Shown piece after piece: positions 21,271-51,664 of a stretch of DNA of 54,704 nucleotides. The DNA is from a virus (lineage: Duplodnaviria; Caudoviricetes), in IMG/VR virus record IMGVR_UViG_3300008448_000108, positions 1-54,704 of that record; one strand, given 5' to 3'. The notes under the pieces were generated by a model. The model searched no databases. It was not told where the DNA came from and worked only from the letters and a program-made list of their open reading frames with translations. Within the stretch, counting starts at the first letter, position 1. Each line of letters opens with the position of its first letter. The position numbers were made by a program, and so were the translations under genes.

Positions 21271-22038
21271 TTATCCCTCCCAATTGGGTATATAGTCTTC
21301 TAATTGGTTGAGAAAAGAATCTTTTGTACCGCCTTGCGCAAAATATTCGTCAACATCCTTGCAGCCTTTTGGCAATAGTAAAAATCTAAGTTTAATTCCA
21401 TGATTGGAGTACTTAGAATAAATTCTTTTCATAGAATTTTCACCACCATCATCACGATCTAATATAAATGTAATCTTCGAAGTATATCGAGCTAATTTTA
21501 ATATATGATTCTTAGAGAATGCTGTACCGCAGATGGCTACGGAGTTTTTAATACCATTCTTATCTAACGCAATATGATCGAAATAACCTTCTACAACAAA
21601 AGCATTTTGTTCTTTTAATATTGCCGACCGAGAATTGTTTAAACCATAAAGATAATTAGCTTTCTTGAAAGAACTATTCTTGTATTTTGGTAAACCCAAA
21701 GCATTTCTCTGTTCTGTGGCTAAAAGTGTTCTACCACCTATTCCCACAACCTCTCCATATTCAGAATGTATTGGAAAAATCAAATAGAAAAACTCCGAAA
21801 ACCTACTGGTATCGGAGTAATCAATTATATTTAGCTTCTGCAAAATAGAAGAGGATACATAAGAATTAAGCTTGGAAACATTCTGTGGAAAATATCCAAT
21901 CTTATATTTCGATACAACTTCTTCATTTAAACCTCGCTGATTGTATATGTAATCTATACATTCTTCGGATTTTGAGAGATTAGAGTGGCAAATAGTTACC
22001 AATTTATCTAGTTCAACAGATACATCTTCTAAATTCAT
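21271..22038 (-). CDS. dnaG: DNA primase catalytic core (DnaG-type TOPRIM) lacking the N-terminal zinc-binding domain
   Basis: RGL...IGY, LIFPI..GEVVGIGGR, PKYKNS, VVEGYFD, ICGTAF, DRDDGG, KDVDE; no CHC2 motif. Confidence 0.9.
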   Translation of the reverse strand: MNLEDVSVELDKLVTICHSNLSKSEECIDYIYNQRGLNEEVVSKYKIGYFPQNVSKLNSYVSSSILQKLNIIDYSDTSRFSEFFYLIFPIHSEYGEVVGIGGRTLLATEQRNALGLPKYKNSSFKKANYLYGLNNSRSAILKEQNAFVVEGYFDHIALDKNGIKNSVAICGTAFSKNHILKLARYTSKITFILDRDDGGENSMKRIYSKYSNHGIKLRFLLLPKGCKDVDEYFAQGGTKDSFLNQLEDYIPNWEG

Positions 22039-26152: not shown

Positions 26153-26695
26153 CTAAGACTCCCAGAAGATCTTATCGCTTCTTCTATAGTTTTTTAAATT
26201 CTCTCTGGCTTCTTCCTCTACAAAATGGAGATCTTCAAATATTAGATAATTATTTGGAAGTAAGGCAAATTGTCCAGAAAATAGATTAATTAAGTTTAAA
26301 GGTTTGTGCTCCTGGGGGTATCGACTATATCCATCTTTATAATCAATAATAATTCCAGTATGCCGACCCTCACTTTGAAAAGGCTGCATTATTTTGCAGC
26401 GTAGCCCCTCCAGGTATCTTGAATGAATAACATCCATATCTTCACCCATAGATGCCCAGGGCATGAGATCACTCTCCTTAATTGAAAAGTCTTGTGAGGT
26501 AGATAGGCAGTGGATTGGAATCCCGCTCCAATGAGCACCTGATTCAAGCATTACATGACACATAATTATTTGGCCCAATCTAGAATAACACCCCCACCAA
26601 ATACCCTTTGTTATTCCTGGTGGCATTTTAGGTCCTAAAAAACTATTATCAACATTAATGTAAAAATGATAAGGTAATTCTATATGCTTTCCCAT
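26153..26695 (-). CDS. Phage-type hypothetical protein (likely start MGKHIELP)
   Basis: GGAGAG RBS before ATG 26695; HVMLESGAHW...GQFALLPNN. Confidence 0.7.
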   Translation of the reverse strand: MGKHIELPYHFYINVDNSFLGPKMPPGITKGIWWGCYSRLGQIIMCHVMLESGAHWSGIPIHCLSTSQDFSIKESDLMPWASMGEDMDVIHSRYLEGLRCKIMQPFQSEGRHTGIIIDYKDGYSRYPQEHKPLNLINLFSGQFALLPNNYLIFEDLHFVEEEARENLKNYRRSDKIFWES

Positions 26696-26703
26696 AAACT
26701 CTC

Positions 26704-26756
26704 CAAAAAGAAACCCCCAAAACACACGCACGCACGCACGTATGAATCAGGGGCTG
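26704..26756 (-). terminator. Terminator-like hairpin enclosing an alternating purine/pyrimidine (GCAC)n tract
   Basis: AGCCCC...GGGGGTT stem followed by TCTTTTT on the minus strand, after the SSB gene; 23-nt alternating tract at 26722-26744. Confidence 0.5.
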
Positions 26757-28131: not shown

Positions 28132-28437
28132 TTATCCATCTTTAGGAAAAATAACCTTTTCAAGAGCTTGAATTCGTGCATCCATCTTATCAAGCTTTTC
28201 TACCCAAGCATCAAGCTTTCTAAGCTTTTGATTGTGCATTACATTTAATAGAAAAAATATAAGAAGCATAGCAGTAGGCTGTGATGGTGATGGTGTAATA
28301 GCAATAATATGTCCATCTTCATTACTCTTAAATAAGCCAAGAAAGGCATCCTTCCCAAAATTTTTTTCCAAGTCTTGATAATATTCAAACTCTTCCTTTG
28401 TCAAATCTAGACGTTGGTTAGCTATTGCCTTTATCAT
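28132..28437 (-). CDS. Hypothetical protein (101 aa)
   Basis: ATGA overlap with the upstream gene; short hydrophobic stretch then coiled coil. Confidence 0.7.
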   Translation of the reverse strand: MIKAIANQRLDLTKEEFEYYQDLEKNFGKDAFLGLFKSNEDGHIIAITPSPSQPTAMLLIFFLLNVMHNQKLRKLDAWVEKLDKMDARIQALEKVIFPKDG

Positions 28438-28982
28438 GTTTCAGACCTTGTAACACCCCTAAATCCGCCACGCTTAAAAGGTTTTTGCACCTTTACTGGA
28501 GCTTGATCATTCATAACCCTTTGCTGATGAAGCCGACGCAATCTTTCAGCCTTTTGATCTATATCTTCGTTACCTTCGGATTCGTCATCTTCATCATCTT
28601 CTTGCGGAATAAACTCGGCAGCAACAGACCTACGGATATCTGATATATCATCTTCTTCAAATTCATTATCCACTTCATCATCTTCTGTGTGAGATACTTC
28701 ACGAGGTATAGATTTCCCAGAGCCTGACTTAACTAAATCCATTGCAATCTTTCCGAATCCATCTTTTAATTCATTAAATATAAACAAGGATAGATCGTAA
28801 ATTTGAGACTCGGAAAATCCGCTAGAAAATCGCTGTGAGGAAATCCTATTTTGAATCGAACCAATTATAGATGAATCACGACTAGAGAGTAATCCAGACC
28901 CACATGATGGGCAGATGTTTTTCATAAGTGCAAATCTCATCATCTCATTTACAGAGAACCCACATTCTTTACATTGAATCAT
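28434..28982 (-). CDS. Zinc-ribbon hypothetical protein with acidic C-half
   Basis: CKEC...CPSC; ATGA overlap with dnaE-C. Confidence 0.75.
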   Translation of the reverse strand: MIQCKECGFSVNEMMRFALMKNICPSCGSGLLSSRDSSIIGSIQNRISSQRFSSGFSESQIYDLSLFIFNELKDGFGKIAMDLVKSGSGKSIPREVSHTEDDEVDNEFEEDDISDIRRSVAAEFIPQEDDEDDESEGNEDIDQKAERLRRLHQQRVMNDQAPVKVQKPFKRGGFRGVTRSET

Positions 28983-30013
28983 ATTTTCTTCCCCAAAACA
29001 CCTTGTAGTAAAGCTAGAGATAATCCTCGTTGCCCCATGTATTCATCCACTTTGCAAATTGCTTTCATTGGCAGGCCATCACTTAAAACCGTCATATACT
29101 TCTCGTAATCATCCTGCCAAACTGTTAGTTCCGCTGTTGTTCCCTCTCCATCTTCAACTAAGTATTTGGCGAACTTTTTACCAATATTCTTACCGCGCTT
29201 AATCTTAAATTCTTTAACCAAGGATTTAATGATTACCTCTATTTTAATCTTCTCACCAACTTCTACGGAAGGAATTTTTCTTAGCGGAGTAATACTGGAA
29301 TCTTGCTTAAAGAACCCTTTAAATACTTCATGGAGAGATCCGCTGATTGTTCTTCCTAAAACCTCTCGCTCGTTAACCAGCAGATCCTTGCGTTCCCATT
29401 CATCATGGTACGTAGGGAGCTGAACCTGATCAATAGTTTTTCCTTTCTTTTTTTCCTTTTGAATTAGATCTCGGTAAGTGGCATAGTTGTCAAAGATATC
29501 TTTTCGGGTTCTACCTAGAGACTGAAACGCTCCAGCTTTTGCCATTGCTTCAATTACCCTTTTATTTACCACTCTAGCGTTAGTACGGTCAAAGAAATCT
29601 TCGATAGATTTATAGGGCTGCAGAGCTATAATCTCATCAATTGCAGTCTCTCCAACCCCTTTTAGTGCAGATAGGCCAGTAACAATTTCTTTGTCTTGTA
29701 ATGTCTTATATTTACCACCACTCTTATTCACATCTGGAGGAGTAATTACAATACCCATTTTAGAGCATTCATTTAGATACTCTAATGATTTATCGCTATT
29801 TGGATCCTCGCTATTAAGCAATGCGCACATAAATTGTGTTGGATAGTGACAGCGCAACCAAGCTGTATAGTATGAAATGTGAGAGTAGGAAACAGAGTGA
29901 GAGTTAGAAGTTAAAATACCATTTGACAAATAATACTGATGATCAGGATGCTCAACTTCTAGATCGTAAGTATCAGATTCGCTAACCTCTTTGATGGAGA
30001 GGATCTTTGCCAT
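28979..30013 (-). CDS. dnaE: DNA polymerase III alpha, C-terminal part (C-intein + HhH + OB fold)
   Basis: After 37 aa: SHSVSY..ISYYTAWLRCHYP, PPDVNKS, GLSALKGVG, VNKRVIEAMAKAGAF, EREVLG..ISG; own GGAGG RBS. Confidence 0.95.
   Translation of the reverse strand: MAKILSIKEVSESDTYDLEVEHPDHQYYLSNGILTSNSHSVSYSHISYYTAWLRCHYPTQFMCALLNSEDPNSDKSLEYLNECSKMGIVITPPDVNKSGGKYKTLQDKEIVTGLSALKGVGETAIDEIIALQPYKSIEDFFDRTNARVVNKRVIEAMAKAGAFQSLGRTRKDIFDNYATYRDLIQKEKKKGKTIDQVQLPTYHDEWERKDLLVNEREVLGRTISGSLHEVFKGFFKQDSSITPLRKIPSVEVGEKIKIEVIIKSLVKEFKIKRGKNIGKKFAKYLVEDGEGTTAELTVWQDDYEKYMTVLSDGLPMKAICKVDEYMGQRGLSLALLQGVLGKKI
29903..30013 (-). mobile_element. Split intein C-fragment (37 aa)
   Basis: MAKILSIKEV...TYDLEVEHPDHQYYLSNGILTSN|S: blocks F and G, terminal Asn, +1 Ser. 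Confidence 0.92.
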
Positions 30014-30027
30014 TATACCTCCGTATA

Positions 30028-30249
30028 TTATATTTTGATAAAGGCTGCCTCAGCAGTTCTAAGGCATATAGTTGCGCCACGAACTCGTACAACGACTGTA
30101 TCTAGTTTTGGGTTTATGGAAATGCACCTTATTATCGTACCAGGAATAAAACCCAATTCAAAAAGCCTTAGTCTAATCAAAGATTTAGGATCTATATTTT
30201 TAATAACAGCTTCAGCGTTCTCTTTCATTTCCAGCAAGCTGCCTTGCAT
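30028..30249 (-). CDS. feoA: FeoA-family SH3-like protein
   Basis: SLLEMKEN..AVI...RLRLFELGFIPG..I...VVRVRGATICLR..EA..I; AGGAG RBS. Confidence 0.85.
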   Translation of the reverse strand: MQGSLLEMKENAEAVIKNIDPKSLIRLRLFELGFIPGTIIRCISINPKLDTVVVRVRGATICLRTAEAAFIKI

Positions 30250-30736
30250 AAAACTCCTCAGATTCCTGTAAGGCTAAAATTAAAGCGACCCCTTCGGTAC
30301 TTGCATCACCTATTAAAGATCTAAACCATCCATCAGGCTTTAGCTCTAATTCCTCTCTGATACCTTCTATCACAGGAGAAACTACACCCCACTCCACCGA
30401 ATCATATCCATCAAAGTAGCAAAGATATACGGTTTCATCTTTGGCTGCAACTCTAATTAGCTGTAGTATAGCACCTAAAGTTGCTGGATCAGTAAGATCT
30501 GGAATGCAGCCAAAGGTTTCTGCAGTACACATATCACTTATATTTCTAATTCTAATCTCAGGCTTTAAATAATCTAACTTATCTGGGGCGCAATTTCTTA
30601 CGCCAAGCATTCCAGGGATCCATCTCCAAGACTTAAGCTTTACAGCCTTCTTGGCGAAATCGACCAATCGCTCATCCATCATCTTTGATTCCTCATGCTT
30701 TGTATATTGGCGGGAGGTTTTATAAGAAATATCCAT
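30212..30736 (-). CDS. Hypothetical phage protein (paralog of 32886..33233)
   Basis: AVK.K.WRWIPGM ... PDLTDPATLGAIL. Confidence 0.7.
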   Translation of the reverse strand: MDISYKTSRQYTKHEESKMMDERLVDFAKKAVKLKSWRWIPGMLGVRNCAPDKLDYLKPEIRIRNISDMCTAETFGCIPDLTDPATLGAILQLIRVAAKDETVYLCYFDGYDSVEWGVVSPVIEGIREELELKPDGWFRSLIGDASTEGVALILALQESEEFYARQLAGNERER

Positions 30737-30821
30737 CTAAGCCTCAGAATCACAAGGCTTAAAAGCCAAAGTATAAACTATAAAATTCGCATGATTTAAA
30801 TTATAAAGCACAGTCATTCTC

Positions 30822-31238
30822 CTAGCAGCCTTCCCAATTTTGATCTTCCAACCTGTAAACTGATATAATCGTTCCATCTTGTGGTGTAGTTACCAATCCA
30901 AAAAGTGGGGAAAAGTTTTGATTTAATGTAACGGTCAACCTTGACTCATTATTTACTTTTACTATCTGAGTAGAAATACTTCTACCATTTTGTGAATGAC
31001 CAGACTCGTTTAAAATCTGATTTAAATTTTGCTGAATATATTCGCAGGGAGATATATCGGACGCTTGGGAGTCGATTGTGGACGCAGCCCTGGCAGAAAG
31101 ATTAACCAAACCTAGTAACTGCTGTCTTTGGCTGAAATACCATCCATAATCAATTATTCCAGAGGATATAGATAAAAGGATTGGGAGTATCAATGCAAAT
31201 TCTACAGCTTGACTACCCCTTCTCTTCTTAATAATCAT
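30822..31238 (-). CDS. tadE: TadE-like pseudopilin
   Basis: Basic leader KKRRG|SQAVE (Glu at +5), hydrophobic helix FALILPILL, IIDYGWYF, SARAA. Confidence 0.85.
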   Translation of the reverse strand: MIIKKRRGSQAVEFALILPILLSISSGIIDYGWYFSQRQQLLGLVNLSARAASTIDSQASDISPCEYIQQNLNQILNESGHSQNGRSISTQIVKVNNESRLTVTLNQNFSPLFGLVTTPQDGTIISVYRLEDQNWEGC

Positions 31239-32494
31239 CTAACCACTCTCAATAGAGATATTAAAACTTCTTGATCTTCACAAGTGACATCATCACCTGA
31301 ATGAGGGACTCTGCTACCCTGACCTGCATCTAGAATTATATTATGATTGCCATTAGCCCTAATGCTTCTAGCCATAATTGTACCACGAAATTCTGCATTA
31401 CCATTTGGATAAACTTCTGATTCTGGCGCGTAAATATTTCCAGAAAAGGTTGTTCTGCCATTAATTCTTACAGTGCGTTCCCCTATAACTCTAATTTCAA
31501 AGCATTCTGGATGTGCAGTATTTCCAGTTACGCCACCACTCAAACTAACATTACCATTAACATAAATAATTGCAGGACTTACAATCCCTTGTGGGCTGGT
31601 ACATCCAGATGCTGCTCCTGAAATATTTATAGATTGGTTACTAGTCGTAGATAAGTCTCCATCTACAAAATAGCTTTCTCCAGAGTAAATAGTTGTAACA
31701 GTACCACCATTTCTTCCGCCTACTCTAACGCCATTAGGTAGGGCAGTATAATCATCAGGATATTCTACAGAGGGTAGAGTAACCTCTAAGCCCATTGGGG
31801 TTGTATCACCATTGAAAGTATAAGCACCGCCATGGGAATCAATACAGCTAATCCCATTGGTTGATTCGCAATCAGGCCCCATATGCATATCAATACCGTT
31901 CTGAACAGATAAGCTTCCACCAAGAGTTATAGATTCTGCATTCGTACATACAGAGCTATTTTCTAATGAGTAATTAATTCCAAGGCTAAAATTTCCTGTT
32001 AACTCAAGACTTTCTGAGGCAAACATAAGGCATGGCCATTCGTTTTCCATTACCGGAACACACTCGTTATTTCTAGTATAAACCTTTCCGGCTACAGATG
32101 ACGAAGATACATAGTAAGATTGATATCCAAAAAGTCCTCCAAAAACAGGAGGCAAGGATGGATTTGTAATTGTAACTTTTACATAGTCACCACTCTCAGT
32201 ATTCTCTACAAATCCACCATCTAAAGAAAAATCACCGATTTGAGTCTCGACTTGCTGATCTCTAATAAAGGAATTATAACTAATATGCATCCTAGCTAGA
32301 GAGGCTGACTCTCCATGCACTAGGGTAATATCATTTTCTTCTGAGTCTAAATATTCTGCAGCAGCTAATGCTGCAGAATCAGAAGCTAATTGAAGGTTTG
32401 ATTTCTCATAACCAATTAGGCTAAGATCAATAGCCAATGCTGCGAATCCTAAAAAAATTGGTAATGCTATTGCTGCATAAGTAGCTGTTCCCAT
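31235..32494 (-). CDS. TadG-like pilus-associated protein with C-terminal beta-solenoid/adhesin-like region
   Basis: Tad N-terminal pattern AIALPIFLGFAALAIDL...LQLASDSAALAAA; C-terminal YVNGNVSLSGG, FSGNIYAPES, FRGTIMA; several Cys. Confidence 0.75.
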   Translation of the reverse strand: MGTATYAAIALPIFLGFAALAIDLSLIGYEKSNLQLASDSAALAAAEYLDSEENDITLVHGESASLARMHISYNSFIRDQQVETQIGDFSLDGGFVENTESGDYVKVTITNPSLPPVFGGLFGYQSYYVSSSSVAGKVYTRNNECVPVMENEWPCLMFASESLELTGNFSLGINYSLENSSVCTNAESITLGGSLSVQNGIDMHMGPDCESTNGISCIDSHGGAYTFNGDTTPMGLEVTLPSVEYPDDYTALPNGVRVGGRNGGTVTTIYSGESYFVDGDLSTTSNQSINISGAASGCTSPQGIVSPAIIYVNGNVSLSGGVTGNTAHPECFEIRVIGERTVRINGRTTFSGNIYAPESEVYPNGNAEFRGTIMARSIRANGNHNIILDAGQGSRVPHSGDDVTCEDQEVLISLLRVVR

Positions 32495-32511
32495 GATTTA
32501 TTCCTTTTATA

Positions 32512-32838
32512 TTAATGTGTATTAGAATCCAAAGCAGCCCTAACTGCAGCATCCTTTGATTCTAGTAGCTTTCGGAGAGCAACTTCTGTCTCAGGGCTAT
32601 CAGGAGCACGTCGTGCTACCTTGTCTGCAAGCTCAGAAAATGGCTTTGAGACTTCTTGAAGGTGCAGTGGTAAATGATCAAACTTGAAATATTTCAAAGT
32701 TTTAGATAGCTGCAATGAGCTATAAACAACTGCCCCTACATAGTCAGGTACTGGCATAGAAACCATTACCTCGCCAGAACGAACTCTGACACATCCATTT
32801 GCCATACAATCTGGATTTGCGCAACAACATGTAATCAT
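32512..32838 (-). CDS. Small phage helical-hairpin protein (possible Acb2/Tad1-like fold)
   Basis: LKYFKFDHLPLHLQEVSKPF..LA...PDSPETEVALRKLLESKDAAVRA; AGGAG RBS. Confidence 0.6.
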   Translation of the reverse strand: MITCCCANPDCMANGCVRVRSGEVMVSMPVPDYVGAVVYSSLQLSKTLKYFKFDHLPLHLQEVSKPFSELADKVARRAPDSPETEVALRKLLESKDAAVRAALDSNTH

Positions 32839-32885
32839 AAAAACTCCTAAACCTATATTAAATATTAATAATTTGCAAAGTTAAT

Positions 32886-33233
32886 TTAAAAACTTTCAAG
32901 AGCTGTTAGTAATGCGTCTACCTCATTAGAATTCCTTAAGACTGTTGTGATCCATAGTTCAAAATTTCCAACACGCCATACATTTGCTCCTAAATGATAG
33001 GCAAATAAATCTGGTTTATTTGAGGAAAGTCTATTTAAATGTAATAAGCATCCTAATGTAGCTGGATCACTAAAATCTGGAATTAGTTCTGGAGGTAGAG
33101 AAAAATTAGCATCTACTCTTCCAGCTTCACCAGTTTCATAATCAACCCAACGCATACCATGTAGCCATTTCCAATTCTTACATCTGACCGCTCTCTGCCC
33201 TAGTTCTAATAACACTTCTAAAGGTAAATTCAT
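32886..33233 (-). CDS. Hypothetical phage protein (paralog of 30212..30736)
   Basis: AVRCKNWKWLHGM ... PDFSDPATLGCLL. Confidence 0.7.
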   Translation of the reverse strand: MNLPLEVLLELGQRAVRCKNWKWLHGMRWVDYETGEAGRVDANFSLPPELIPDFSDPATLGCLLHLNRLSSNKPDLFAYHLGANVWRVGNFELWITTVLRNSNEVDALLTALESF

Positions 33234-33236
33234 AGC

Positions 33237-33533
33237 TCATCCATAATGTTCACTATTTTTAATTGCAGTAATGGCATCTTCATAGGCTGCAGCACATAGA
33301 GGAATATCTGTAGAGTCCATCTTTCTCTTTAAGAACTCTAAAATTAATTTTCTTTCTCTCATTTCACCTAAGATTTCACTTGCTTCTGGATTCGGCCAAG
33401 ATGACCTATCTTCATAGTCTCGAATTATATTGTCTGCTTTGGCTACTAGTTGCCAAGCCCATTCTGCTGCAAATTCCTTATCCTCTAATCTGATAAAGAA
33501 TTCCTCAATAAAGTCATCTTTTGTATATAGCAT
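33237..33533 (-). CDS. Hypothetical protein (98 aa)
   Basis: GAGGA RBS directly after the dnaE-N stop; no nuclease motif seen. Confidence 0.65.
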   Translation of the reverse strand: MLYTKDDFIEEFFIRLEDKEFAAEWAWQLVAKADNIIRDYEDRSSWPNPEASEILGEMRERKLILEFLKRKMDSTDIPLCAAAYEDAITAIKNSEHYG

Positions 33534-33539
33534 ACTTCC

Positions 33540-36200
33540 TCACTTATTAACAACTATTTCTAGGTTATCTTCAATGATCTTACAGAGTGGTAACATCTCA
33601 CCTGTATTAGTTCTGAATTTATGATTAATTGTACATGTTACACTTGAGCCATTATCTAATTGTACTTCAAACACTTTTAGTTTTCCATGATAATGATTAT
33701 CTTTTACTTGAATAACTACATCTTTTCCGGACTCCTCATCTCTGCTACGAACCCAACATCCTGGCTGTACATTCTGAATTTCAACATCTTGCCAAAGTTC
33801 ACGCCCTGAAGAGTCTCTGGTCATGATGCTGATTAATTCATCAAACCTCAAGGAGCGGTTGAAGCCATATAGGCCAAATGGTTCAATTTGCTCATCCCAG
33901 ATTCTCTTTGCTTCTTCATATTTCATGCCAGATACTTTCATGCAATCTGCAATAAAATTAGCTTCTGTTTTAAGAACTAGATCTGGATCCTTACCCTTTA
34001 GCTTTGTAATTTTGCGAAGAGCATCTGCCTGGTTAAGATCCCAACCTGCACAATCCTTTGCGATTGTCATCATTCCTTCCTCATAAAGAGAGACGCCATA
34101 AGTTTTCTTTAGAGAGTTCTCCATTTTTGGATGAATATATTCAATATCTTCTACTCCAAGCTTTCTGTTGATATAATCATTTCTTTGATCTGGAGAACAG
34201 GAGGGGCGACCCAAGGCATTGATATCTGAGATTTCCTCAATGTTTCTTGGCTTAATCTTCATACAAAGTGGCGTTAGTGATGATTCCAACTGAAAGACAC
34301 CAGCAGTTTCACCTCGTCCAATCATCTTGAAGGTGTCTGTATCACCCAAGGGAATGTTATCAATCTCAATTTCTTCACCCTTGTTTTCTTTGATAATTCT
34401 AAAGGCATCATCAATAACATTTAAGGTATTCAAGCCAAGAAGGTCCATCTTGATTAGACCATTATCTTCACACCGAGTTTTTTCCCACTGAGTAACTACA
34501 AGCCCTGATTCAGCATCAATTCTTAGCGGAGCAACTTCATAAAGTGGACGATCACTAATAACTACACCTGCAGCATGAACACTCCAGTTTCTAGTTAGAC
34601 CTTGGAGCTTACAGGCGTTTTCATATAGCTCTGGATATTTTTTCATGTAGGCTGCAAACTCTTTGCTTTCTTTCATTGCCTGCTCTACGGTTTCTGAGTC
34701 GGGCATGATAGATGTTAAATGATTTGCAATTTTAAATGCTTCTGATTTATCACCACCTAATTCAAGGCTTCTGGCTACGTCTTTAATAATAACTTTTGGT
34801 GAGAGAGTAGACCAATTACTAATGGATGCAACCTTTTCTGCACCATATTTTTCTTTCAGATACTCTTTTACCTTTGCAGGGTCTGCGAAATCCGAATCAA
34901 TATCGGGGAAGCTTTTCTTCTCTTTATTCTGAAATCGCTCAAAAAGTAGATCATATTTTATGGGATCAACTGTTGTAATTCCAGTTAAATAGGCAACAAT
35001 CGAGCCTGCCGCGCTGCCTCTCGCGGGTCCGGTAGGCATCTTCTGATCTTTAGCCCAATTAATAAAATCTGCAACAATTAGCATATAAGAAGAGAAGTTC
35101 TTTTCCTCTAGTACGTTAAGCTCTTTTTTTACTCGATCCCAATATTCACGCTTCTGATCATCCGTTAAGTCTACTAGCTTCTCTTTAAATCCCATCATGC
35201 ATCGGTAACGTAGATAGGATTTATCCTCTTCTACATCAGGACAAGCCTTTGCACTCCAGCTTTTAAACTTCTGATAATCCTTTTCTTGCTGAATTGGAAA
35301 CTTTGGAAGAATAGCACCTTTTGGCTCAATATAAGTTGGATTGTCACAAGAATTTAAAATCTTGATAGAATTTTCCATTCCCTTCTTGGCAATATCTGGT
35401 CCAAAAAAGGATGTAATTTCTTCATATGTTTTAAGATACATATCTTGCACGCCATAACGAAATCTATCAGGATCATTCACTGGTTTCTTATCTTTGATGG
35501 CTAACATGAAATCGTGATACTTGGCGTGATCCTTATCTCGATAGTGTGCATCACAAGTGATAACGTATGGAATTTTTTTATCATGAGAAAGTCTAATCAT
35601 TGCTTCATTTAGCTTTCTTTGATTAACTTCCTTGCCATTCTTTCCTGTGGCTTGGAGATCATGTGGCTGGATCTCAAGGAAAAAACGATCTTTAAAAATA
35701 GCATTAAACCGATCAAGATAGCATAGGGCTTCTTGTTCGTTTTCTTCGGTAATTAGAGTTTTTGCAATCAGTCCATTAGAGCAGGCAGTAAGAGCAATAA
35801 CTCCTTGGTTGAATTGCTCAATATGCTCCCAAGAAAGTCGTGGGGTTTGCTTACCCATATAGCCAGAGACTTGATTCCGATAAGCCTCATAGTTTAGGCG
35901 AAGAATATTTCGATAACCTACTTCGTTTTGAGCAAGGAGAACCAAATGGTAATTCTTCTTATCAGCAAGATCTGGAGTGAAGTATGCCTCCATACCTGGA
36001 ATCAATTTAACTCCATGCTTCTTGCTAGCCTTCCAGGCATCAAAGATTGCAGTCATTGTACCGTGATCTGTAACTGCAACGCCAGGGTGATCTACCTCTT
36101 TTGCGCGAATAAATAAATCCTCTACATCATTCATACCGTCTAATGGAGAACCCAATTCGGTATGATTGTGCAAAGACACAAATGGTCCTGAAATTCCCAT
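33540..36200 (-). CDS. dnaE: DNA polymerase III alpha, N-terminal part (PHP + polymerase core + N-intein)
   Basis: SLHNHT, TDHG, GMEAY, CDAHY (PHP); GPARGSAAGS, FPDIDSDF, HAAGVVI, KMDLLGL, GVFQLES; extein ends ...LYGFNR. Confidence 0.95.
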   Translation of the reverse strand: MGISGPFVSLHNHTELGSPLDGMNDVEDLFIRAKEVDHPGVAVTDHGTMTAIFDAWKASKKHGVKLIPGMEAYFTPDLADKKNYHLVLLAQNEVGYRNILRLNYEAYRNQVSGYMGKQTPRLSWEHIEQFNQGVIALTACSNGLIAKTLITEENEQEALCYLDRFNAIFKDRFFLEIQPHDLQATGKNGKEVNQRKLNEAMIRLSHDKKIPYVITCDAHYRDKDHAKYHDFMLAIKDKKPVNDPDRFRYGVQDMYLKTYEEITSFFGPDIAKKGMENSIKILNSCDNPTYIEPKGAILPKFPIQQEKDYQKFKSWSAKACPDVEEDKSYLRYRCMMGFKEKLVDLTDDQKREYWDRVKKELNVLEEKNFSSYMLIVADFINWAKDQKMPTGPARGSAAGSIVAYLTGITTVDPIKYDLLFERFQNKEKKSFPDIDSDFADPAKVKEYLKEKYGAEKVASISNWSTLSPKVIIKDVARSLELGGDKSEAFKIANHLTSIMPDSETVEQAMKESKEFAAYMKKYPELYENACKLQGLTRNWSVHAAGVVISDRPLYEVAPLRIDAESGLVVTQWEKTRCEDNGLIKMDLLGLNTLNVIDDAFRIIKENKGEEIEIDNIPLGDTDTFKMIGRGETAGVFQLESSLTPLCMKIKPRNIEEISDINALGRPSCSPDQRNDYINRKLGVEDIEYIHPKMENSLKKTYGVSLYEEGMMTIAKDCAGWDLNQADALRKITKLKGKDPDLVLKTEANFIADCMKVSGMKYEEAKRIWDEQIEPFGLYGFNRSLRFDELISIMTRDSSGRELWQDVEIQNVQPGCWVRSRDEESGKDVVIQVKDNHYHGKLKVFEVQLDNGSSVTCTINHKFRTNTGEMLPLCKIIEDNLEIVVNK
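33543..33854 (-). mobile_element. Split intein N-fragment (104 aa, Ser1)
   Basis: Starts SLRFDELI right after YGFNR; IQNVQPG.WV; block B VTCTINHKF; stop after 104 aa. Confidence 0.9.
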
Positions 36201-36241
36201 ATTTCCTCCAGAATATTCTTTTGAAATTATTACAATATTCT

Positions 36242-36637
36242 CTAATCTATGTCTAGAATTATATTTTGATTGCCATAATGCCGTCTAGAACCTTTAGTTA
36301 TCATGGTAGTCTTACCAGCATTTAATGGCGGTCCAAAAGCAGAATATACTTTCTTTTTGAAAGTTTCATAACGATATTTAGCAAAGTACTGTTCAACAAC
36401 TGATTTATATGCAATAACGGTTTCATATCCATACCACTCTGCATATATAGCTTCAATTATTATTTTTGTTGTTTTGCCCACACCCCTATTTAGGCTTGGG
36501 ATATCGACATCTTTGTTTTCAAGAAAATGAGTAATTTTTTTAAATAACATCTCTCTAAATAAGGCAAGCCGCTGGATCTCCCAATCTTTTTGTGGAAGAA
36601 GTCCAGCGGCCTGATAGAAAGAGTCTATATCAATCAT
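36242..36637 (-). CDS. Hypothetical protein with isolated P-loop-like RGVGKTT
   Basis: Walker A-like motif in a protein too short for a full NTPase. Confidence 0.6.
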   Translation of the reverse strand: MIDIDSFYQAAGLLPQKDWEIQRLALFREMLFKKITHFLENKDVDIPSLNRGVGKTTKIIIEAIYAEWYGYETVIAYKSVVEQYFAKYRYETFKKKVYSAFGPPLNAGKTTMITKGSRRHYGNQNIILDID

Positions 36638-37050
36638 TCAACCAAATCGGCAATATTAGTATAGATATCAACCGATGCACTAATGTCAATGTCTTTTTTG
36701 AGTGCTCTAATGGCTAGATCAATTTCATCACGAGGAACGCCATTTTGCTTTGCATCTGAAATTAGCTGACGCTTTTCTTCAACGTGCTCATTTACAATTT
36801 CAACATATCCTTGAATTACTGCGCTATTGGTAATTGCATTCTTTCGCTCTTCTCGCAGCTGCTTAATTTCATCATCAATTCTTTGAATGTCATCATTTGA
36901 TAAGATAGCTTCTCGCAATTCTGATTTTGCTTCCTTGATCTTGGAAGAAATAGCTCCAAGATCCTTAACGAAATTTCTAACTGCAGTTTTGTCGGCTACT
37001 TTTGGTTCTGGACTCAAAGGATTAATTGCACCAATTAGTTCACTAGACAT
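36634..37050 (-). CDS. Coiled-coil protein, possibly GapR/DsbA-like DNA-binding
   Basis: GAGGAGG RBS; EEKRQLISDAKQNGVP..EIDLAIRALK loosely resembles that pattern; function weakly supported. Confidence 0.45.
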   Translation of the reverse strand: MSSELIGAINPLSPEPKVADKTAVRNFVKDLGAISSKIKEAKSELREAILSNDDIQRIDDEIKQLREERKNAITNSAVIQGYVEIVNEHVEEKRQLISDAKQNGVPRDEIDLAIRALKKDIDISASVDIYTNIADLVE

Positions 37051-37099: not shown

Positions 37100-40000
37100 T
37101 CAATCTTCAAATACTTCATCGCCAGGTAGTCCTCTAAATAAAACCGAGGAATCATCTGACCAATTAGCTAGGCCCTTGCGCCTATCCATTATCATACCTG
37201 GGAGTTTTTTGGACCTCAAAGAATTCTTATTAGAATCTTTGGCCTGGTGATCTAATACGTAATTTCTATCTTTAGAACCAGCAGCCATTTCTTCATACAT
37301 TGCTTCTATTTCCTCCATATTTATAGAGGTTATATAGTTCTTAGAATTTGATTCTAATGATTCAGCAATAGTTTTCAAATCGTGAGTCAATCCCATCTTC
37401 TCTGCAGAGGCTCCAAGGATAGCTTGGGTTCTGGCATTATTTGCCGCAGAAGAAAGGTCGTCAATATCCAAAACGGCATCATCAACGCCTTGTTGTGTAT
37501 ACATATATTGTATATAGCTGCCTGCATTATTTTCATCAGATCTAGATATGACATCAAAATATTCACCAGGTAGATTTAGCCAATCAGTCTTTGAAATAAA
37601 GCTATTGATTGAAGAAATAACATTTGGATCTAATCCGCTTGGAGTTAGGATATCCTCAATGCCTACCTTCATTCCGTTTACATTTAAAGCGTTCAGTATT
37701 GGCTGAAGGTTATATACCTTGGTTATAAATCTTTTTAATCTTTCTTTCTCAATATTACTAATCGAAAATCCTCGTATTTCTGGATTATTTATAATCATAA
37801 GTGCTTTATAGGGACTTACCAACTGTGTAGATAACATAGAGCAGGCGTCATTTGCCTTATAACCCTTAGGATCCTTTGGTAATGGAAGCTGTGATTTTGA
37901 GCTATCAAATGGTATGTAAGAGCTATTGCTATTAAGCATTAATTGCCTGGTTGATATTTTGTCAACCTCTGGCTGAATAGTACTCAAGAAATCTCTCTTC
38001 AAGATTGCTTCTGCCATTTTCAAATCTTTTGGACTAGAAGAATATTCAGCTCTAGCTTGCATTAGGCTAGTTTCATATTCCTTTTTTGCTTCTATAATTT
38101 TTCTTTCAGCATTTCTTATGTAGTCTATATCTTCTGGGCTTCTTCCTCTTTGTAGTAGTGGAGTTATATTTAATGGTGCCCCTTCAAAGTTAACTTCAAA
38201 GTTGTAATCAAAGATGGCAATATTTTTTGCATTACTTACCTCTTGTTTAGAACCGCCGGAATTATACTTTGAATCTTCTACTGGTAGTAGCATACCAACA
38301 TAGCCCCAAGCATCTGAGAATCCACCAGAGTCTGAGAATAATGTATTTTCCCATTCAATATCTGATCCGCACCATCTAGTTTGATCTTTTACCTTAGGTC
38401 TTGTTGCTCCGATTTGTAGCTTGCTATTGTTAAAGTTTGGATGCATAACCAGAGGAGGCTCCTCTGGTGGAGAAGAAAGACCAACCTCTAAGCTTTGAGC
38501 TGTTATTCCAGAACGTAGAGATTCTGGTAGAGTTAGCTTTACATAATAGGAGTTTACAAGAGACCCCGCTGTGACACCTGTAAGGTCATCAGACTCTTTT
38601 AGCGTAACTTTTGAACCATCAATATTTTTGCAAACTATTGCAAAATTTGTAATAGGAACATTTATAACTTCAATTATAAATTCTTGGCCAAAAGAAATTG
38701 AGGTATTAAATGATTTTATATCTACAAGATCAGCCTTGCCCTTACCCTTTAGACCTATTTTTGATACAGCAGGAGATCTAGAAGAGCTAACTAGGAAATC
38801 ATTATTTATTATTTCATATTTAATTATAGATCTATCCTTTGGCGATAAAGTTTGTGATAATTTTTCATTCTCTTTTGCCAATATTAATTCCGCTTCTTCT
38901 TTGGAATCAGAAGAAATATTATATAAAGTAATAATGTTAGGCTGCCTATTTGGAGCGACTGAGAACTTACCAGCAGACTCTATTATCTCATACCTAATCT
39001 GACCAACATCTGATGGGGATAGTAATCCGTTTAATCTGCTATTCTCTTCAAAAAGGATCCTTTCTGCCTGCTGCCTTGTTGGAGCGGACATCGTTGCAAG
39101 TACTATTTTTGATGGCTGCCTATTTGGAACAATAGAAAAAGACTTTACCCTTTGCAAATCACTAACGAAGGCATAGCTTTTTGATACATAAGGAATTCGC
39201 TGCCTCATTGGAGAACGTCTATTTGTTTTAGTCTCAGGATTGTTGGGGTCGCTAGACATTCTCATAGTTTTTGCAGGAAGATTTCTAGAGAGATTATTTA
39301 GAATATCTCTAATAGATTGACTTGGATTTGTATCTTTAATTCTGTTTGCTACATATTTCTTAGCTTCAATCAAAGCCTGAGGAGAGAATACTGTATTTTT
39401 GACATCAGCCAATCTAAGCATTAGCTCATTATACAACAAGTCCATTCTTATTGGATAAGCCTTGGAGCCAGGAACTATAGAGGGGAAAACATCTTCAGAC
39501 TGATCACCCTCTAGTAGGTCTTCCAGAATGGAAGAAGGAAGTTTACCTATAAGAGTTGTAATTCCACCTGCATCTGCTGGATTTAATAATATCTGTGGGC
39601 TAGAAAGATCTATATTTAAATCAAAACCAACGTAATCAAATAAGTTGTTTTTGTTAAAATATTTCTGATATAGTTGTGACATTACCTTGGCTAAAGCTAT
39701 TCCGTATGAAACTATTACGAGCCTACCGCCATACGCCCGTGTTTCAACATTTGATCTTTGTGCTTTAAACCAAGAGTCTCTAATTAGATAAGATATAAAA
39801 TCACTATCCTTCATCATGATAGCGGCAAATTGTGCTCCAACATCTTCGGAATTTCTACCGTCTGTATACTTCTTGAAACTTGGTATTTCATACAGAGTAG
39901 TATCGACAGCTTGTAATATCACTTTATATGAGACTTCTTTATCAATGCTTTCGATATTTATTCCCTCCGCGTCAACAATATCATTCATATTTTCTACAAC

Positions 40001-43000
40001 GGAAAGGATGTGCGGAAATATATTCTTGATCTCTTTCTTGAGAGAACCTTCTACTCCAGTAACAAACTGATTGAATTTATCTCCTAAGTTTGGAAGTGTA
40101 GCCTTAGTTGTTGATAAAATCAAATTTCTATAGTTTTGTATAAACCTATCAGATATATCTTGTTCGGCTGGTTGTGAGCTTACAGCATTGAGCATTGCAT
40201 TAGATGTTGCTGCCTTAGTATATCCATTAATAGTATTTAGGTACTTCCTTATAATTTCCATCAAGGCATAGTATTTTGGCCTTGTTTGATTTAAGAATAC
40301 CATCTTCCATCTTTTATTTCTATAATCGTAACTGGATCTTAAGGGTAGAACCTGTGTTCCTGGTAGCTGTCTGCCTTCAACAAGTGAGGCTTCTGATAGG
40401 CTATCATACTGTTCCCCATCCTTATTCTCACCAGAGGCTGATAGAGACTCAATTCCAGACTGTGTTGAGCCTTCCCCATCATCACCTTCTACATCCCCAA
40501 TGGAAATTTTTCCAGTGATACGTGGCTTTGTCACAGATATCTTTGAAGTATATGTCTCTGTTGATAACCAGGCAGAATCTCTAACGTTATGCTTCTTGCT
40601 TAAGAAGTAATTTTTAATTACACCATTTTCATCTGGAACTTCGAAAATTAATAATGCCTTAGAATAATCTGGATTTTCTTTTTCTGCAGATACAATCCTA
40701 GCAGCTTCAGGTACGTTTAGCCAATCTTTATAAACTTTAGCATTTTTGTATGGTATAGAGCCATCATATTCTTGCAAAATACCTGTTGAAATTAACCTAC
40801 TAGCATTTTCCAATCCAGTTGCTACAGAAACATTTAAAAACTTAGAAGATCTGCTTGGATCATAATGAACTGCAGAATAAGCCTCTCCAAATTTTAAGCT
40901 ATCTTCAATTTTAAATCTATGTCCAAAGGGGCATACTAGATATATTTTACCTAGAATTCTATTGAAGGTTTCTGCATCACTAAAACTACCAATACCCTTT
41001 GATGGCTTTAGAGGCTTTGAAGCATAAGCTATAATCTCTGAAACTTTATTAATCCTTTCTTCTGACCTATAATCAAATGCAATCTTTCTGACCTCATGAC
41101 TATATTTTGCAGAGGTTTTATTCATTGCATAGTACTTTTCTAAATCGGCATTAAGAGCCATAATATCTTGTGGATCCATGCCATTTTGAACTAGGTAGTT
41201 TAAGAACTTATAATAGTCCTGAGGTGAATCCTTAGCAGTAGATAATAAGCATTCTAATATAAATTGATTTCCAGCATTCTCATCTCTATTGAAGGAAGAG
41301 ATTGAGGTTGGTGCTGCGCAAACCATAAATGCAACTGTTCCATTAGGAATACTTGCTTGAGATCCATCAGGATTTGTTGGTGGCACGAAGCTGCCACCGC
41401 CAGAAGGTCCACCCTTTGATATTACAAGATTTCTATGAAGCTTTGAAGAATCTTTGTCTGGATTAGAAATATGACATGGGCATGCAAAAGTTAATGATGA
41501 AAATTTATAACCACTCCTTAATAACACAGAAGAGGAGGGGTCAACAGCATCGGTGCCTTGAGAGATTCTTGCTGGTACATCTTCATCCTTTAATGATCTT
41601 AGGCTTCCATTAAATTGGGGCTGAGAAGCAATTCTAGATGAAAGTATAGTACTCTTCACAGGACTTGTACTTGCACCACAATAAGATCCTGGAGAGCCTT
41701 GACCATTATAAACTGGAAGTGAAGGACACTTAACAGCCATTTCGTTAATACTCTTTCTTCTTGAGACTTCCTTGCCGCCTGCTCCCAATAATGCAGCAGC
41801 CCTTCTATGCCAGCCCTCTCTGTGCTTTTGAGAGTCAGAGCTTAGAACTAGCGCAGTAATTTCATCCCATGTATATCCTTGAGAGGCTGCGTCTTGATTT
41901 ACTAGCTTGTTCACAAATTCAAATTCTAACCTGGCATTACGATCTTCACTTGCAGAACTCTTTTCTTCTTCAAGCTCCTCTTCTTTATATCTTCTGCCAG
42001 TTCGAGGTTTAAATCTGTCCGCATATTTTTTTACAATCTTATATCGGACATCTTCTCCCTGTATATTTCGGCGCATACTATCATCTGTCAGAACTGTGAA
42101 TGTTCCATCAGATTCTTCTTTGACGGGAGATACTACGGAAACAGTAAATCCTCTTTCTTCTTTTGGAATAGATGTATTGTAGCCGAGGGTTGAAGGAATC
42201 ATCTTAAAACAAACTGGGCATGGTCTTAATCTATAATCAGTTTCTATGTTGTAGACCGATGATAATCCCATGTTTATTATATATTGGAATTTAAGGCTTG
42301 ATGCAGAAATGAAATTATCAATAGAGCCATTAAAACTTGGAGAAAGGTAATTTCCTAATTTATTATAAAATGATTTAACTGCGGCAGAGGATGATTCAGT
42401 TAAAATCTCATCGTACTCTGATGGCTGAACGCCATAGCCCATTGCCTTTATATACTTCTCTAAAGAGCTATATGCTGATGCTAAAGCTGAAGAATCTGCT
42501 TTAAGCTGACTTGTACCTGCAGCAAAGAACTTAGAAGAGCGACCGCCAGAAAGTGATAAGGTTATATAATATAGAATATATTTGATACTTTGATCTGCTA
42601 TGCCAGAAACAATTGCTGAATTATTAAGTATTCTATAAGAACAAGCTCTTTCTAAAAACTCTTCCTTTACCTTATCAATTTTTAATAACTGTGCAGCTTT
42701 TACTTCGCTTTCTTTTTGTGAAGTTGGGATTATGGATTCTATTCTAGATCTGTATTCATTTATAGACTTATGAGTATCAAGCTCTGCCTTCTTTACTGTA
42801 TACATTATAGAATTAAATTCTCTAGATAAGCCACCCTTATTTTCAGAACCAGAACCCTTGGAAGCTAGCTTATACATATCTACAATTCTAGAAATTATTT
42901 TTGTAGAAAAAGATTCCAAAGCGGGCAAATCTATGCTAGGAAGATTGCCTGCAGATAAGTCTTCAAAAGTTGCATTTCTATCTGGAAAGTCAATAAAGGC

Positions 43001-49958: not shown

Positions 49959-51122
49959 CTACACCATAATCTTTTTTGCTTCGGATAAGATAACTAATTT
50001 TTCTTCTTCATCCATACTAGCTTGATCATCTATAAAGGCTTTAAACATAGAGTAGTCATCTTTATGATTTAGAATCGCCTCATCTCTAACCATCCTAGTA
50101 ACTATTGGCTCTACTGTCACTTTTGAAACATAAAAAGCTCCAGAGTTATATAGAATCTTTTCAATATCATTCTTCTTAATAAATGGAGCCAGATTATCTC
50201 TGATTATGATTCTAGCTCTAGTTATTTTATTATCTAAACTTAATTCAGATATCTTTTCCTTAAATAAATCAATAAAGTTATTGTGATCAGCATTCTCTAG
50301 CGTAATGGTAATATCTTCCAAGGGTCTTGATGGGCATTTTAAAACTTTGGTTCTCTTTGTTTGAGTGTCATAATCAATAAATACTTTATCTATATCCTGA
50401 TCTCCAAAGTTTAATTTTTCCATAGAGCCTGTATATATTGCAATTGGCTCCTTCTTATTTATAATCTTAAACTGATGATAATGACCCATAGCAACAAAAT
50501 CGCAGCCCTTGAAAGCATCTACTCTAGCCAAAACTTCTGCTCCACCATAATCATTATAGCTAGAAGTAAAATAAAAGTTATGGCCTATTGCAACCGTTGG
50601 GTTACTATCACATTGAGCTATTAAATCTTTAACTTCTTGTTCATATAGGAGGGAGTTGTCCTCTGTTGTTTTGCCTAGATACATTCTTTTATCTCTGTAT
50701 GGCAAAAGAACTAAATTAGCTCCAGGCTGGTTTATACCATGTAACTTTATTACCTCAGGGGTTAGAACAATTCTTACGTTTGGATAATCTTTTGCCGCGA
50801 GAGAAGAAATTGCACTTGTAAAGGTCTCTCCAGATCTCCTGTAATCATGATTGCCCATAATGATTACAGATGTAATATTTGCCATAGATAATCTTTTTAT
50901 AGCCTTACTTAGAACATTCATATGTTCTGGAGCTGGAGTTCTGGAGTCAAAAGCATCTCCAGTCTGTATAAATGCGTCAGCACCATTTTCTATCGCATAG
51001 GTTACTATATGATTTAGGGTTTTCTCATAGTCATCCACCCTGGTATTTCCACCATCTTTGGTTGCTTTACCCAATCCAAAAACAGCACCAATATGAGTGT
51101 CGCCACAAATGATAAGCTTCAT
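49959..51122 (-). CDS. sbcD: SbcD/Mre11-like nuclease
   Basis: GDTHIG, TGDAFD, MGNHD, GHN, MGHYH, YTGS. Confidence 0.92.
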   Translation of the reverse strand: MKLIICGDTHIGAVFGLGKATKDGGNTRVDDYEKTLNHIVTYAIENGADAFIQTGDAFDSRTPAPEHMNVLSKAIKRLSMANITSVIIMGNHDYRRSGETFTSAISSLAAKDYPNVRIVLTPEVIKLHGINQPGANLVLLPYRDKRMYLGKTTEDNSLLYEQEVKDLIAQCDSNPTVAIGHNFYFTSSYNDYGGAEVLARVDAFKGCDFVAMGHYHQFKIINKKEPIAIYTGSMEKLNFGDQDIDKVFIDYDTQTKRTKVLKCPSRPLEDITITLENADHNNFIDLFKEKISELSLDNKITRARIIIRDNLAPFIKKNDIEKILYNSGAFYVSKVTVEPIVTRMVRDEAILNHKDDYSMFKAFIDDQASMDEEEKLVILSEAKKIMV

Positions 51123-51664
51123 TTCTCATACCTTTCCTTTATAGTTTGCTCAATTTTTTTCAGAAGTAATTTTGCTTTATGGTCATCATTCTGTTCTATA
51201 TCCATAATATAATTATCAGAATGCTTCATAAGCTTATTTATCCATTTTAAATCATCCTTGTGAGATAAAATAGTTTCCCTAAAAAGGTTTGATATCTGCA
51301 AGAGGGTGTAGAAGTTATTAATTTCTACATTAAAGCTTTTTGAGCTTGAGCTTGGCTCAACCCTAGTTCTCAACTTAGATACAGCTTCTCCAAAGGTAAC
51401 GCCAGTACAAATCATATAGAAATCTATAGAGTTAGAACCAGCCCCACATCCAAAGCAGTAAAAATTATTTTTAACACTATCAATATAGAGAGAGCCAGTT
51501 CTTTCTCCACCATTTTTATGATTTGGAGAAGGACACCGGCATCTTCTATTGAAGTTTCCAGATGATACTTCCTCTGTGTCAATTCCAAATTCATCCGTTA
51601 AATCTAGAATCAAAACCCCAGAGGTAATATCTTCTTTAGAGATATATCCACTTTTCATATTCAA
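51119..51664 (-). CDS. Stand-alone CHC2 zinc finger (primase zinc-binding domain-like)
   Basis: CPSPNH...ERTGSL...FYCFGCGAG.NSIDF...TFGEAV..L. Confidence 0.85.
   Translation of the reverse strand: MNMKSGYISKEDITSGVLILDLTDEFGIDTEEVSSGNFNRRCRCPSPNHKNGGERTGSLYIDSVKNNFYCFGCGAGSNSIDFYMICTGVTFGEAVSKLRTRVEPSSSSKSFNVEINNFYTLLQISNLFRETILSHKDDLKWINKLMKHSDNYIMDIEQNDDHKAKLLLKKIEQTIKERYEK

Follow-up and report, generated by a model that had tools for sequence, protein, structure and literature searches.

A phage dnaE gene with seven genes between its halves

A phage dnaE gene was found that is broken by a split intein and whose two halves are separated by seven cargo genes, with none of the homing endonucleases that most of its relatives carry at this place. 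The gene lies on IMG/VR record IMGVR_UViG_3300008448_000108 (Duplodnaviria; Caudoviricetes), and the window refers to the whole stretch analysed, positions 1 to 54,704 of that record. We consider it likely that this dnaE is a fractured gene that has lost an ancestral endonuclease and later took up accessory genes in its spacer.

The window, a 54.7-kb viral contig, has an estimated completeness of ~16%, which makes it a piece of a very large phage genome. Nearly all of its genes are on the minus strand. A scan with PHROG profiles identified a portal, a large terminase, a prohead-protease-like domain, GroEL and a UvsX-like recombinase, together with RuvC, SSB, SbcCD, primase pieces and sigma factors. 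The N-terminal half of dnaE (33540..36200, minus strand) is an 886-aa open reading frame (ORF) that contains dnaE residues 1-783, with the PHP, NTPase/palm and finger domains, followed by the 103-aa N-intein, IntN (nt 33543-33851, minus strand; residues 784-886). The C-terminal half (28979..30013, minus strand) is a 344-aa ORF that starts with the 36-aa C-intein, IntC (nt 29906-30013, minus strand; residues 1-36), and continues with the HhH and OB domains. Pfam detects PHP, DNA_pol3_alpha and DNA_pol3_finger on the first half and HHH_6 on the second. Both halves match a single PHROG DNA-polymerase profile, phrog_405, the N-half at positions 44-794 and the C-half at positions 793-1054. Since these two stretches meet, the break in dnaE is exact, and rejoining the exteins would give the full-length host protein. 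The cut falls within a conserved motif, between GFN(K/R) and SHS.

The two halves are 3,526 bp apart, and seven co-oriented minus-strand ORFs of 98, 115, 108, 419, 138, 174 and 73 aa, in order from IntN, lie inside. They cover ~95% of the gap, with spacers of -38 to +85 nt. This ORF list matches exactly the seven genes described in the earlier note on this DNA, and Pfam agrees with its naming of the TadG-like, TadE-like and FeoA genes. The same architecture is present in two other contigs. Contigs from sequencing runs of other studies are ~99% identical to the window over most of the gap, and one piece of a run contig spans IntN and the first two cargo genes, g98 and g115, continuously. The layout is therefore not an assembly artefact. 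In a blastn search, the 7.2-kb locus matched none of 50,697 deposited phage records.

The intein halves retain their catalytic residues

Both intein halves resemble solved inteins. IntN matched the DnaE inteins 7qil with an E value of 3.3e-9 and Npu DnaE with about 1e-7. IntC matched VidaL with 2e-5 and the Npu DnaE IntC with 0.017. The Pfam family Intein_splicing matched at 0.027, which is under its cut-off. Position 1 of the intein, straight after GFNR, is Ser; among six aligned homologues it is Ser in five and Cys in one. The block-B motif T-x-x-H reads T-I-N-H in the window, and its Thr and His are invariant in all six homologues. The C-intein ends in GILTSN, so that the terminal Asn is followed by the +1 Ser of SHS, and LTSN plus SHS is again invariant in six of six. 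With these residues in place, the halves should rejoin the polymerase by protein trans-splicing. Strong purifying selection acts on the N-half of dnaE (dN/dS about 0.04), and this selection, combined with the intact catalytic residues, suggests that trans-splicing is active.

The closest solved relative of IntN is the cyanobacterial split DnaE intein (Npu/Ssp; 4kl5, 4lx3, 1zd7), to which IntC is also related. The two inteins have the same split point (about 100 + 36 aa) and are found in the same host protein and the same sequence motif. The cyanobacterial intein has Cys1 and Cys+1 and is inserted three residues upstream in this motif, whereas the nucleophiles in the window are Ser1 and Ser+1. 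The halves of the cyanobacterial gene are unlinked in the genome, in contrast to the 3.5 kb that separates the halves here. The family to which the window belongs is a source of many natural Ser1/Ser+1 split-intein alleles.

An endonuclease is the probable ancestral content of the gap

To place the window among its relatives, loci from related contigs (numbered L) were collected. A search with the N-half returned 28 viral loci, 22 of which read through the site without an intein and 6 of which are split at the same place, as judged from tblastn coordinates. An alignment search with the IntC region returned 72 loci. About 50 of these have the same intein allele, and the gap was measurable in 47. 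A full-length, free-standing homing-endonuclease ORF was present in 32 of the 47 measured gaps, in agreement with the earlier note's premise that such enzymes are common between split halves. In 28 of these gaps, the ORF matched a profile derived from the ORFs in the gaps of L003, L026 and L028. In two more (L068, L080) the endonuclease was found by a six-frame search, and in another two (L043, L067) a 661- or 685-aa ORF matched PHROG homing-endonuclease families at 1e-47 to 1e-66. The remaining gaps contained endonuclease fragments (four: L035, L036, L050, L052), just 27-491 bp (ten), or cargo (one). The last of these, L033, is the same contig as L005, which has a twin, L019, on a second contig.

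The PHROG families matched by the relatives' gap ORFs are named homing endonuclease, HNH endonuclease and intron encoded nuclease (2.3e-11 to 1.9e-66), names that disagree on the type of enzyme. Pfam DUF559 was found on them under its cut-off (E 0.0023-0.04), and a MucR zinc finger under or near its cut-off. A PDB profile search with the relatives' gap endonuclease gave no nuclease match. These ORFs may correspond to the Vsr-like free-standing endonucleases described in fractured genes by Dassa, London, Stoddard, Schueler-Furman and Pietrokovski (2009; PMC2677866).

In the window, the free-standing homing endonuclease that Dassa et al. (2009) place between the halves was not found. No nuclease family matched any of the seven gap ORFs in Pfam (E<=0.1), PHROGs, PADLOC or NCBIfam. 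When the profiles of the relatives' gap endonuclease were run against a six-frame translation of the whole window, the best E value was 0.85, and no remnant was seen. Fold searches with the models of two cargo proteins, g115 and g108, among them the Foldseek check proposed in the earlier note, brought up no nuclease fold that stood out, although this is not proof of absence. The earlier note's reading of the gap as free of an endonuclease thus holds in each of these searches.

A DnaE tree was built from residues 420-783 with 53 rows, leaving out 16 duplicate rows and 5 short rows. The window and L019 are paired with a support of 99, and this pair adjoins L039, which has no endonuclease, and the pair L037/L042. 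Loci with an endonuclease are present in every major clade. L037, which has the endonuclease, and L042, which has a 27-bp gap, have near-identical DnaE and a different gap state. L006 lacks the intein and is nested next to L076 and L038, two loci with both intein and endonuclease, and the DnaE sequences are again near-identical. L037/L042 and L006/L038/L076 are candidates for recent loss and homing events. The simplest reading of the gap-state counts and the tree is that the endonuclease is ancestral and was lost many times, that cargo is derived, and that homing has been recent. This polarity was missed in the earlier note: with its homing endonuclease lost, the gap in the window is in a derived state.

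The closest endonuclease-less relative, L004, has a 452-bp gap. A 139-aa ORF in this gap (L004 12574-12993) has no match in Pfam, PHROGs, PADLOC or NCBIfam and shows no endonuclease remnant. Many relatives also have a second insert of ~1.2-1.3 kb at about DnaE residue 399, which is probably another intein. Examples are L024, L025, L027 (about 11203-12509) and L026 (7633-8824). This insert is independent of the split intein at residue 783.

The contents of the gap vary among relatives

The closest relatives, L005/L019, are 90% identical to the window in DnaE-N and 80.5% in DnaE-C. Their gap is 4.7 kb and contains, in order, g98 (87% identity), g108 (84%), a g115-like gene (53%), a TnpB/Cas12f-like gene, TadG (55%) and an N6/N4 DNA methyltransferase, and it lacks TadE, g174 and FeoA. 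The TnpB/Cas12f-like gene (L005/L019 13870-15084) matches Pfam Cas12f1-like_TNB at 1.5e-19 and PADLOC Cas12f at 2.6e-26, and the methyltransferase (L005/L019 16516-17322) was identified at 2e-31. At the DNA level, the window and L005 are colinear at 82% identity from 36243 through g98. Beyond this point, g115 and g108 have changed places and the two sequences resemble each other only in patches. A third arrangement was seen on L106, a 2.2-kb metagenome contig with the order TadG, TadE, g98-like, g174-like, in which g98 is 35%, TadE 52% and g174 57% identical to the window.

The whole records of five relatives were searched for the cargo genes. TadG, g98 and g108 occur in the record of L019 only and TadE in none, and one g115-family gene is found ~30 kb from dnaE in the record of L003. 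None of the TadG, TadE, g98, g108 and g115 families is present in intein-less relatives that are 94% and 100% complete. Over ~22 kb around the locus, ordered counterparts between the window and L019 exist for 12 of the 14 flanking genes and for 4 of the 7 gap genes. Within this syntenic neighbourhood, variation is highest in the gap, though the gap is not the sole variable place.

A gap that also grew by gene gain was found in the other deep clade, in L044, whose nearest relatives are 55-56% identical. Here a 295-aa endonuclease stands beside IntN, and the halves are ~12 kb apart (L044 1-10000 with L244). About 11 kb has been added to this gap, with about 20 mostly small ORFs that include an AAA ATPase and a DUF2201/VWA protein. 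The expansion in L044 is independent of that in the window lineage.

The interval therefore differs between relatives, and the findings that the earlier note had named as damaging to its view (one interval shared by all relatives, unlinked halves, or an endonuclease among the ORFs) were not encountered. Its description of the gap as a landing site for host-interaction genes holds in part. The cargo is variable, accessory and lineage-specific, but a role in host interaction is plausible only for the TadG/TadE pair and weakly so for FeoA.

The cargo genes

All seven cargo genes are on the minus strand. Where a comparator exists, their dN/dS is 0.03-0.21 with dS saturated. Because dN is far below dS, they are working genes under purifying selection. 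NCBIfam gave nothing further above its cut-offs for the seven ORFs, and PADLOC gave no match for any. PDB sequence searches with g108 and with the alignments of g98 and g108 gave no meaningful match.

The first gene, g98 (33237-33533), is directly behind IntN and encodes an acidic 98-aa protein with no match in Pfam, PHROGs, PADLOC, NCBIfam, PDB or Atlas. The Atlas search returned no usable feature match and only low-value structure rows. Its dN/dS is about 0.03, with dS saturated.

The gene g115 (32886-33233; 115 aa) belongs to a family of small phage genes that is widespread and frequently present in tandem copies. This family was seen at 56 viral loci, 54 of which have no dnaE within 6 kb. 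The AlphaFold model of g115 is alpha/beta with a pLDDT of 92.9. Against solved structures, Foldseek gave a best E of 0.22 and VIA a best Z of 4.5 (rmsd 5.3 over 90 residues), none of which is credible. The sixth gene, g174 (30212-30736; 174 aa), is a longer paralogue of g115. The two are 28% identical and have in common the motifs W-x-W-x-P-G-M and I-P-D-x-x-D-P-A-T-L-G.

The 108-aa product of g108 (32512-32838) has a Cys-rich N-terminus and a very widespread 60-aa helical phage domain. It matches two PHROG families of unknown function (phrog_1761 at 7.4e-28), and the domain has 288 relatives in viral contigs. Eighty of these were kept, and no dnaE was within 5 kb in the 78 loci examined (L166-L243). 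A model of the family has a pLDDT of 80.2, with the three-helix C-terminal part confident. The best Foldseek E was 0.7 and the best VIA Z was 8.8 over 72 residues, which is in the noise range for helical bundles. The Atlas linked g108, at a feature score of 0.91, to clusters whose members have PF24729 (Acb2/Tad1 hairpin) in 17-62% of cases. Pfam did not find PF24729 in g108 itself and found it in 2 of 34 family members (best E 0.026), and no Acb2 or Tad1 was among the matches in PDB profile and fold searches with g108. This protein might be a sponge-like counter-defence protein, a lead that comes from the Atlas and that Pfam and fold search did not confirm.

The next two genes are related to the pseudopilins of bacterial tad loci (TadE/TadF/TadG), whose N-terminal Pfam domains are above cut-off in the window proteins. 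The TadG-like protein (31235-32494; 419 aa) has an N-terminal Tad helix (PF13400, residues 2-46, 33.6 bits against a cut-off of 22.3) and a beta-rich DUF7305 domain (45.6 bits against 27). The TadE-like protein (30822-31238; 138 aa), whose start overlaps the TadG-like stop by 4 nt, matches PF07811 over profile positions 1-43 of 43 (39.1 bits against 22.9, E 8.1e-10). Its stretch G/SQAVEF presumably fits the prepilin-peptidase cleavage motif. Among 5.8 billion proteins, the TadG-like protein has only 10 close relatives, all of them metagenomic, and a profile search found 4,898 distant ones. A single-sequence pattern query for TadG in viral contigs found no match. With the TadG alignment, viral contigs gave only the two contigs already known, metagenome contigs gave one 2.2-kb contig, and genome contigs gave no match. 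The nearest cellular relative of TadG is in a tadG-tadE-tadE-tadG(VWA) cluster of a proteobacterial metagenome-assembled genome (MAG), at 34-35% identity. The tadG-tadE gene order is common to this locus and to the window pair. Bacterial tad genes are cellular, in contrast to the phage-borne pair, which is just 34-35% identical to its nearest cellular relatives. PHROGs identified no tad pilus gene (pilin, peptidase, ATPase or secretin) among the 44 other ORFs of this ~16% complete record. A possible role of the pair is to alter a host Tad pilus or to block it. A literature search, with subscription journals outside its coverage, found no paper on phage-encoded Tad pseudopilins.

The last gene encodes a 73-aa FeoA-like SH3-type small protein (30028-30249) and overlaps the end of g174 by 38 nt. 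It matches PF04023 over profile positions 2-71 of 74 (54.4 bits against a cut-off of 23, E 1.3e-14). Its score against the NCBIfam equivalog was 22.6, where 102 is required, so it belongs to the FeoA domain family and is not an E. coli-type FeoA equivalog. A word-based search of the 5.8 billion proteins found the query itself and no close relative, and Pfam and PHROG scans showed no feoB partner among the other ORFs of the window. This protein is a lone, very diverged domain. The gaps of the split-intein family to which the window belongs are a place to seek new phage accessory genes, such as phage-borne TadG/TadE pseudopilins and the widespread g108 domain.

How the gap may have been filled

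The anatomy of the locus, the conserved intein residues, the ancestral endonuclease state and the varying accessory cargo can be read together as follows. The polymerase would be made as two polypeptides, which the Ser1, Ser+1 intein halves would join by trans-splicing. The ancestral spacer would have held one free-standing homing endonuclease gene, through which the element invaded dnaE alleles without an intein. This gene would have been lost in the window lineage, and the spacer would then have been filled with phage accessory genes (g115/g174 and g108), a TadG/TadE pair of bacterial type, a FeoA-like gene and the orphan g98. Because the two dnaE halves need not be contiguous, the spacer tolerates insertions. 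All seven genes are co-oriented and tightly packed, so the cargo is probably transcribed with the replication genes. We infer this co-transcription, as well as gain of the cargo by illegitimate recombination or transposition. The TnpB/Cas12f-like gene in the gap of the closest relatives means that an insertion agent is present there and that transposable elements land in the gap.

Several points weigh against this explanation. Splicing activity is predicted from conserved residues alone. The 47 split loci are not independent, since several are identical or near-identical. A scan of 28400-36700 for promoters and terminators found 25 promoter-like sites where shuffled sequences gave 26.1, and 3 terminator-like sites where 5.0 were expected. 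These counts are not above shuffles and speak neither for nor against the transcription unit. No transposon ends or target duplications were found at the locus; the only repeat is one of 25 nt. With ~16% of the genome in the window, a second, intact polymerase gene is possible. Finally, homologues of g98 are present in three sequences only, and a novel nuclease is formally possible.

Another possible explanation, which we consider unlikely, is that the intein-bracketed gap is an exchangeable cassette. Its cargo would move as a block, either through recombination in the dnaE flanks, as the earlier note proposed, or through homing with an endonuclease in cis or from a co-infecting relative. A cassette would account for the different gap contents of the window, L005/L019 and L106. 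It would also suit the intermixing of intein-less and intein-bearing alleles on the DnaE tree, which points to recent homing, and the endonuclease that L044 retains beside its 11-kb cargo. In addition, nuclease genes are reported to mark the boundaries of exchange between phages (PMC10448857).

Run contigs came from three studies, one of lake water (X1), one of the subsurface (X2 and X4) and one of freshwater (X5), and provided further evidence on this explanation. Stretches left uncovered in X2 and X5 do not count towards this evidence. On one X1 contig, g98 is joined to g108 and g115 is skipped. In place of g115 are 35 letters, of which 34 agree by eye with the L005 spacer (L005:12960-12994), so that layouts with and without g115 appear to co-exist in one sample. 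However, this joint is a single contig with a 28-letter short side and was flagged as weak by the tool. Other run contigs diverge from the window at gene borders, at 32488 (X5), at 32857 (X2) and, next to dnaE, at 36243 (X2 and X4). Against a cassette, the same cargo was not found in a different dnaE background, although the seven closest TadG homologues are on short contigs of 1.2-18.6 kb and L106, at 2.2 kb, ends before dnaE. The differences between the window and L005/L019 are also inside the gap (the order swap, the TnpB-like gene, and the methyltransferase in place of TadE, g174 and FeoA), and the IntN/g98 side is colinear. These differences look like ordinary insertion and rearrangement and do not bear out swapping through the dnaE flanks.

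A related and also unlikely idea is that the spacer serves as a mobile safe harbour. Cargo would be kept there by selection on the surrounding essential gene and copied into the intein-less dnaE of co-infecting phages. Copying would take place when the homing endonuclease of the same element cuts, with the enzyme supplied in cis, as in L044, or by a relative. In that case, intein homing would carry accessory and counter-defence genes along with it as hitch-hikers.

It is very improbable that one of the seven ORFs is itself a new or highly diverged homing endonuclease, which would make this a classical fractured gene. The best candidate by position is g98, since the place directly behind IntN is that of the endonuclease in relatives. 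It is as conserved as DnaE (dN 0.08 vs 0.06), and its Atlas model is poor (pLDDT 0.55). However, g98 has 98 aa, compared to at least 295 aa for the endonucleases in relatives' gaps. No metal-binding or nuclease motif was seen in its sequence, and on L106 the g98-like gene is between the TadE-like and g174-like genes, away from the intein end. For the seven ORFs together, the absence of any nuclease family match and of a nuclease fold in the g115 and g108 models argues against an endonuclease.

Also very unlikely is an intein that does not splice and merely clasps the polymerase halves, or a non-functional split dnaE with another polymerase in use; a record that is just 16% complete leaves room for the latter, but the locus keeps Ser1, the block-B Thr/His, its terminal Asn and the +1 Ser, positions that are invariant or conservatively replaced in six of six homologues, the N-half is strongly constrained by its dN/dS, and one dnaE copy was found per record in each of four partial records.

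Comparison with known systems

PMC2677866 describes split inteins that break essential phage-type replication genes, including three dnaE loci. The fractured genes there come with Vsr-like free-standing endonucleases, with one locus lacking an endonuclease, and its model has endonuclease loss followed by uncoupling of the halves. As in the window family, the halves of these genes are adjacent and co-oriented, and most relatives of the window have one endonuclease in the gap in the same way. The window differs from these loci, as described, in that its 3.5-kb gap contains seven unrelated genes and lacks an endonuclease. The available sections describe no locus with other genes between the halves, and among the papers listed in our literature search, which did not extend to subscription journals, none describes non-endonuclease genes between split-intein halves. 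The cargo-filled gap is a late stage of the fractured-gene layout that the 2009 model, as given in those sections, foresaw.

The series of loci documents the steps of this process, from intein and endonuclease, through decay (fragments, gaps of 27-491 bp), to gain of cargo (3.5, 4.7 and about 12 kb). Its end state, fully separated halves, has long been known in cyanobacterial dnaE. The cargo is also similar to phage morons and hypervariable islands, which likewise consist of small, co-oriented, lineage-specific genes between core genes, with families that recur in unrelated phages. Unlike morons, the island in the window is inside the reading frame of an essential gene, which is possible only through the split intein. 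The locus shows that, through a split intein, genes can be gained inside an essential gene, a hot spot of an unusual type for phage genomes.

Other features of the window

The 25-nt direct repeat has one copy in the 3' part of the TadG-like gene (31329-31353, minus strand) and its partner in the 3' end of a 131-aa ORF (36252-36276), with 24 of 25 positions identical. Both copies encode G-N-x-N-I-I-L-D. No copy with up to 4 mismatches is present in any fetched locus. The second copy is 9 nt from position 36243, where homology to L005 starts and where the X2/X4 contigs diverge. The repeat may be a recombination scar.

The 131-aa ORF (36242-36637) is directly upstream of dnaE and has no counterpart in any relative and no family match. 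Some X2 and X4 contigs contain it and some diverge exactly at 36243. This ORF resembles a second polymorphic insertion adjoining dnaE. For one X4 contig, 20 letters are listed between 33379 and 36393, with no matching entry among the joints. At face value, this contig would link g98 to the 131-aa ORF and skip the N-half of dnaE.

A 192-aa ORF (26153-26731) between SSB and RuvC matches phrog_3704, named ferredoxin, at 9.8e-14. It has no counterpart in L019, L005, L004 or L003 and is another lineage-specific insertion. The 2,301-aa ORF at 37100-44005 has no PHROG match and is 26-34% identical to the corresponding giant ORF of relatives. The DNA primase is also encoded as two ORFs, 29 kb apart, with the zinc-finger part at 51119-51664 (phrog_6444 positions 45-93) and the catalytic part at 21271-22038 (positions 121-366).

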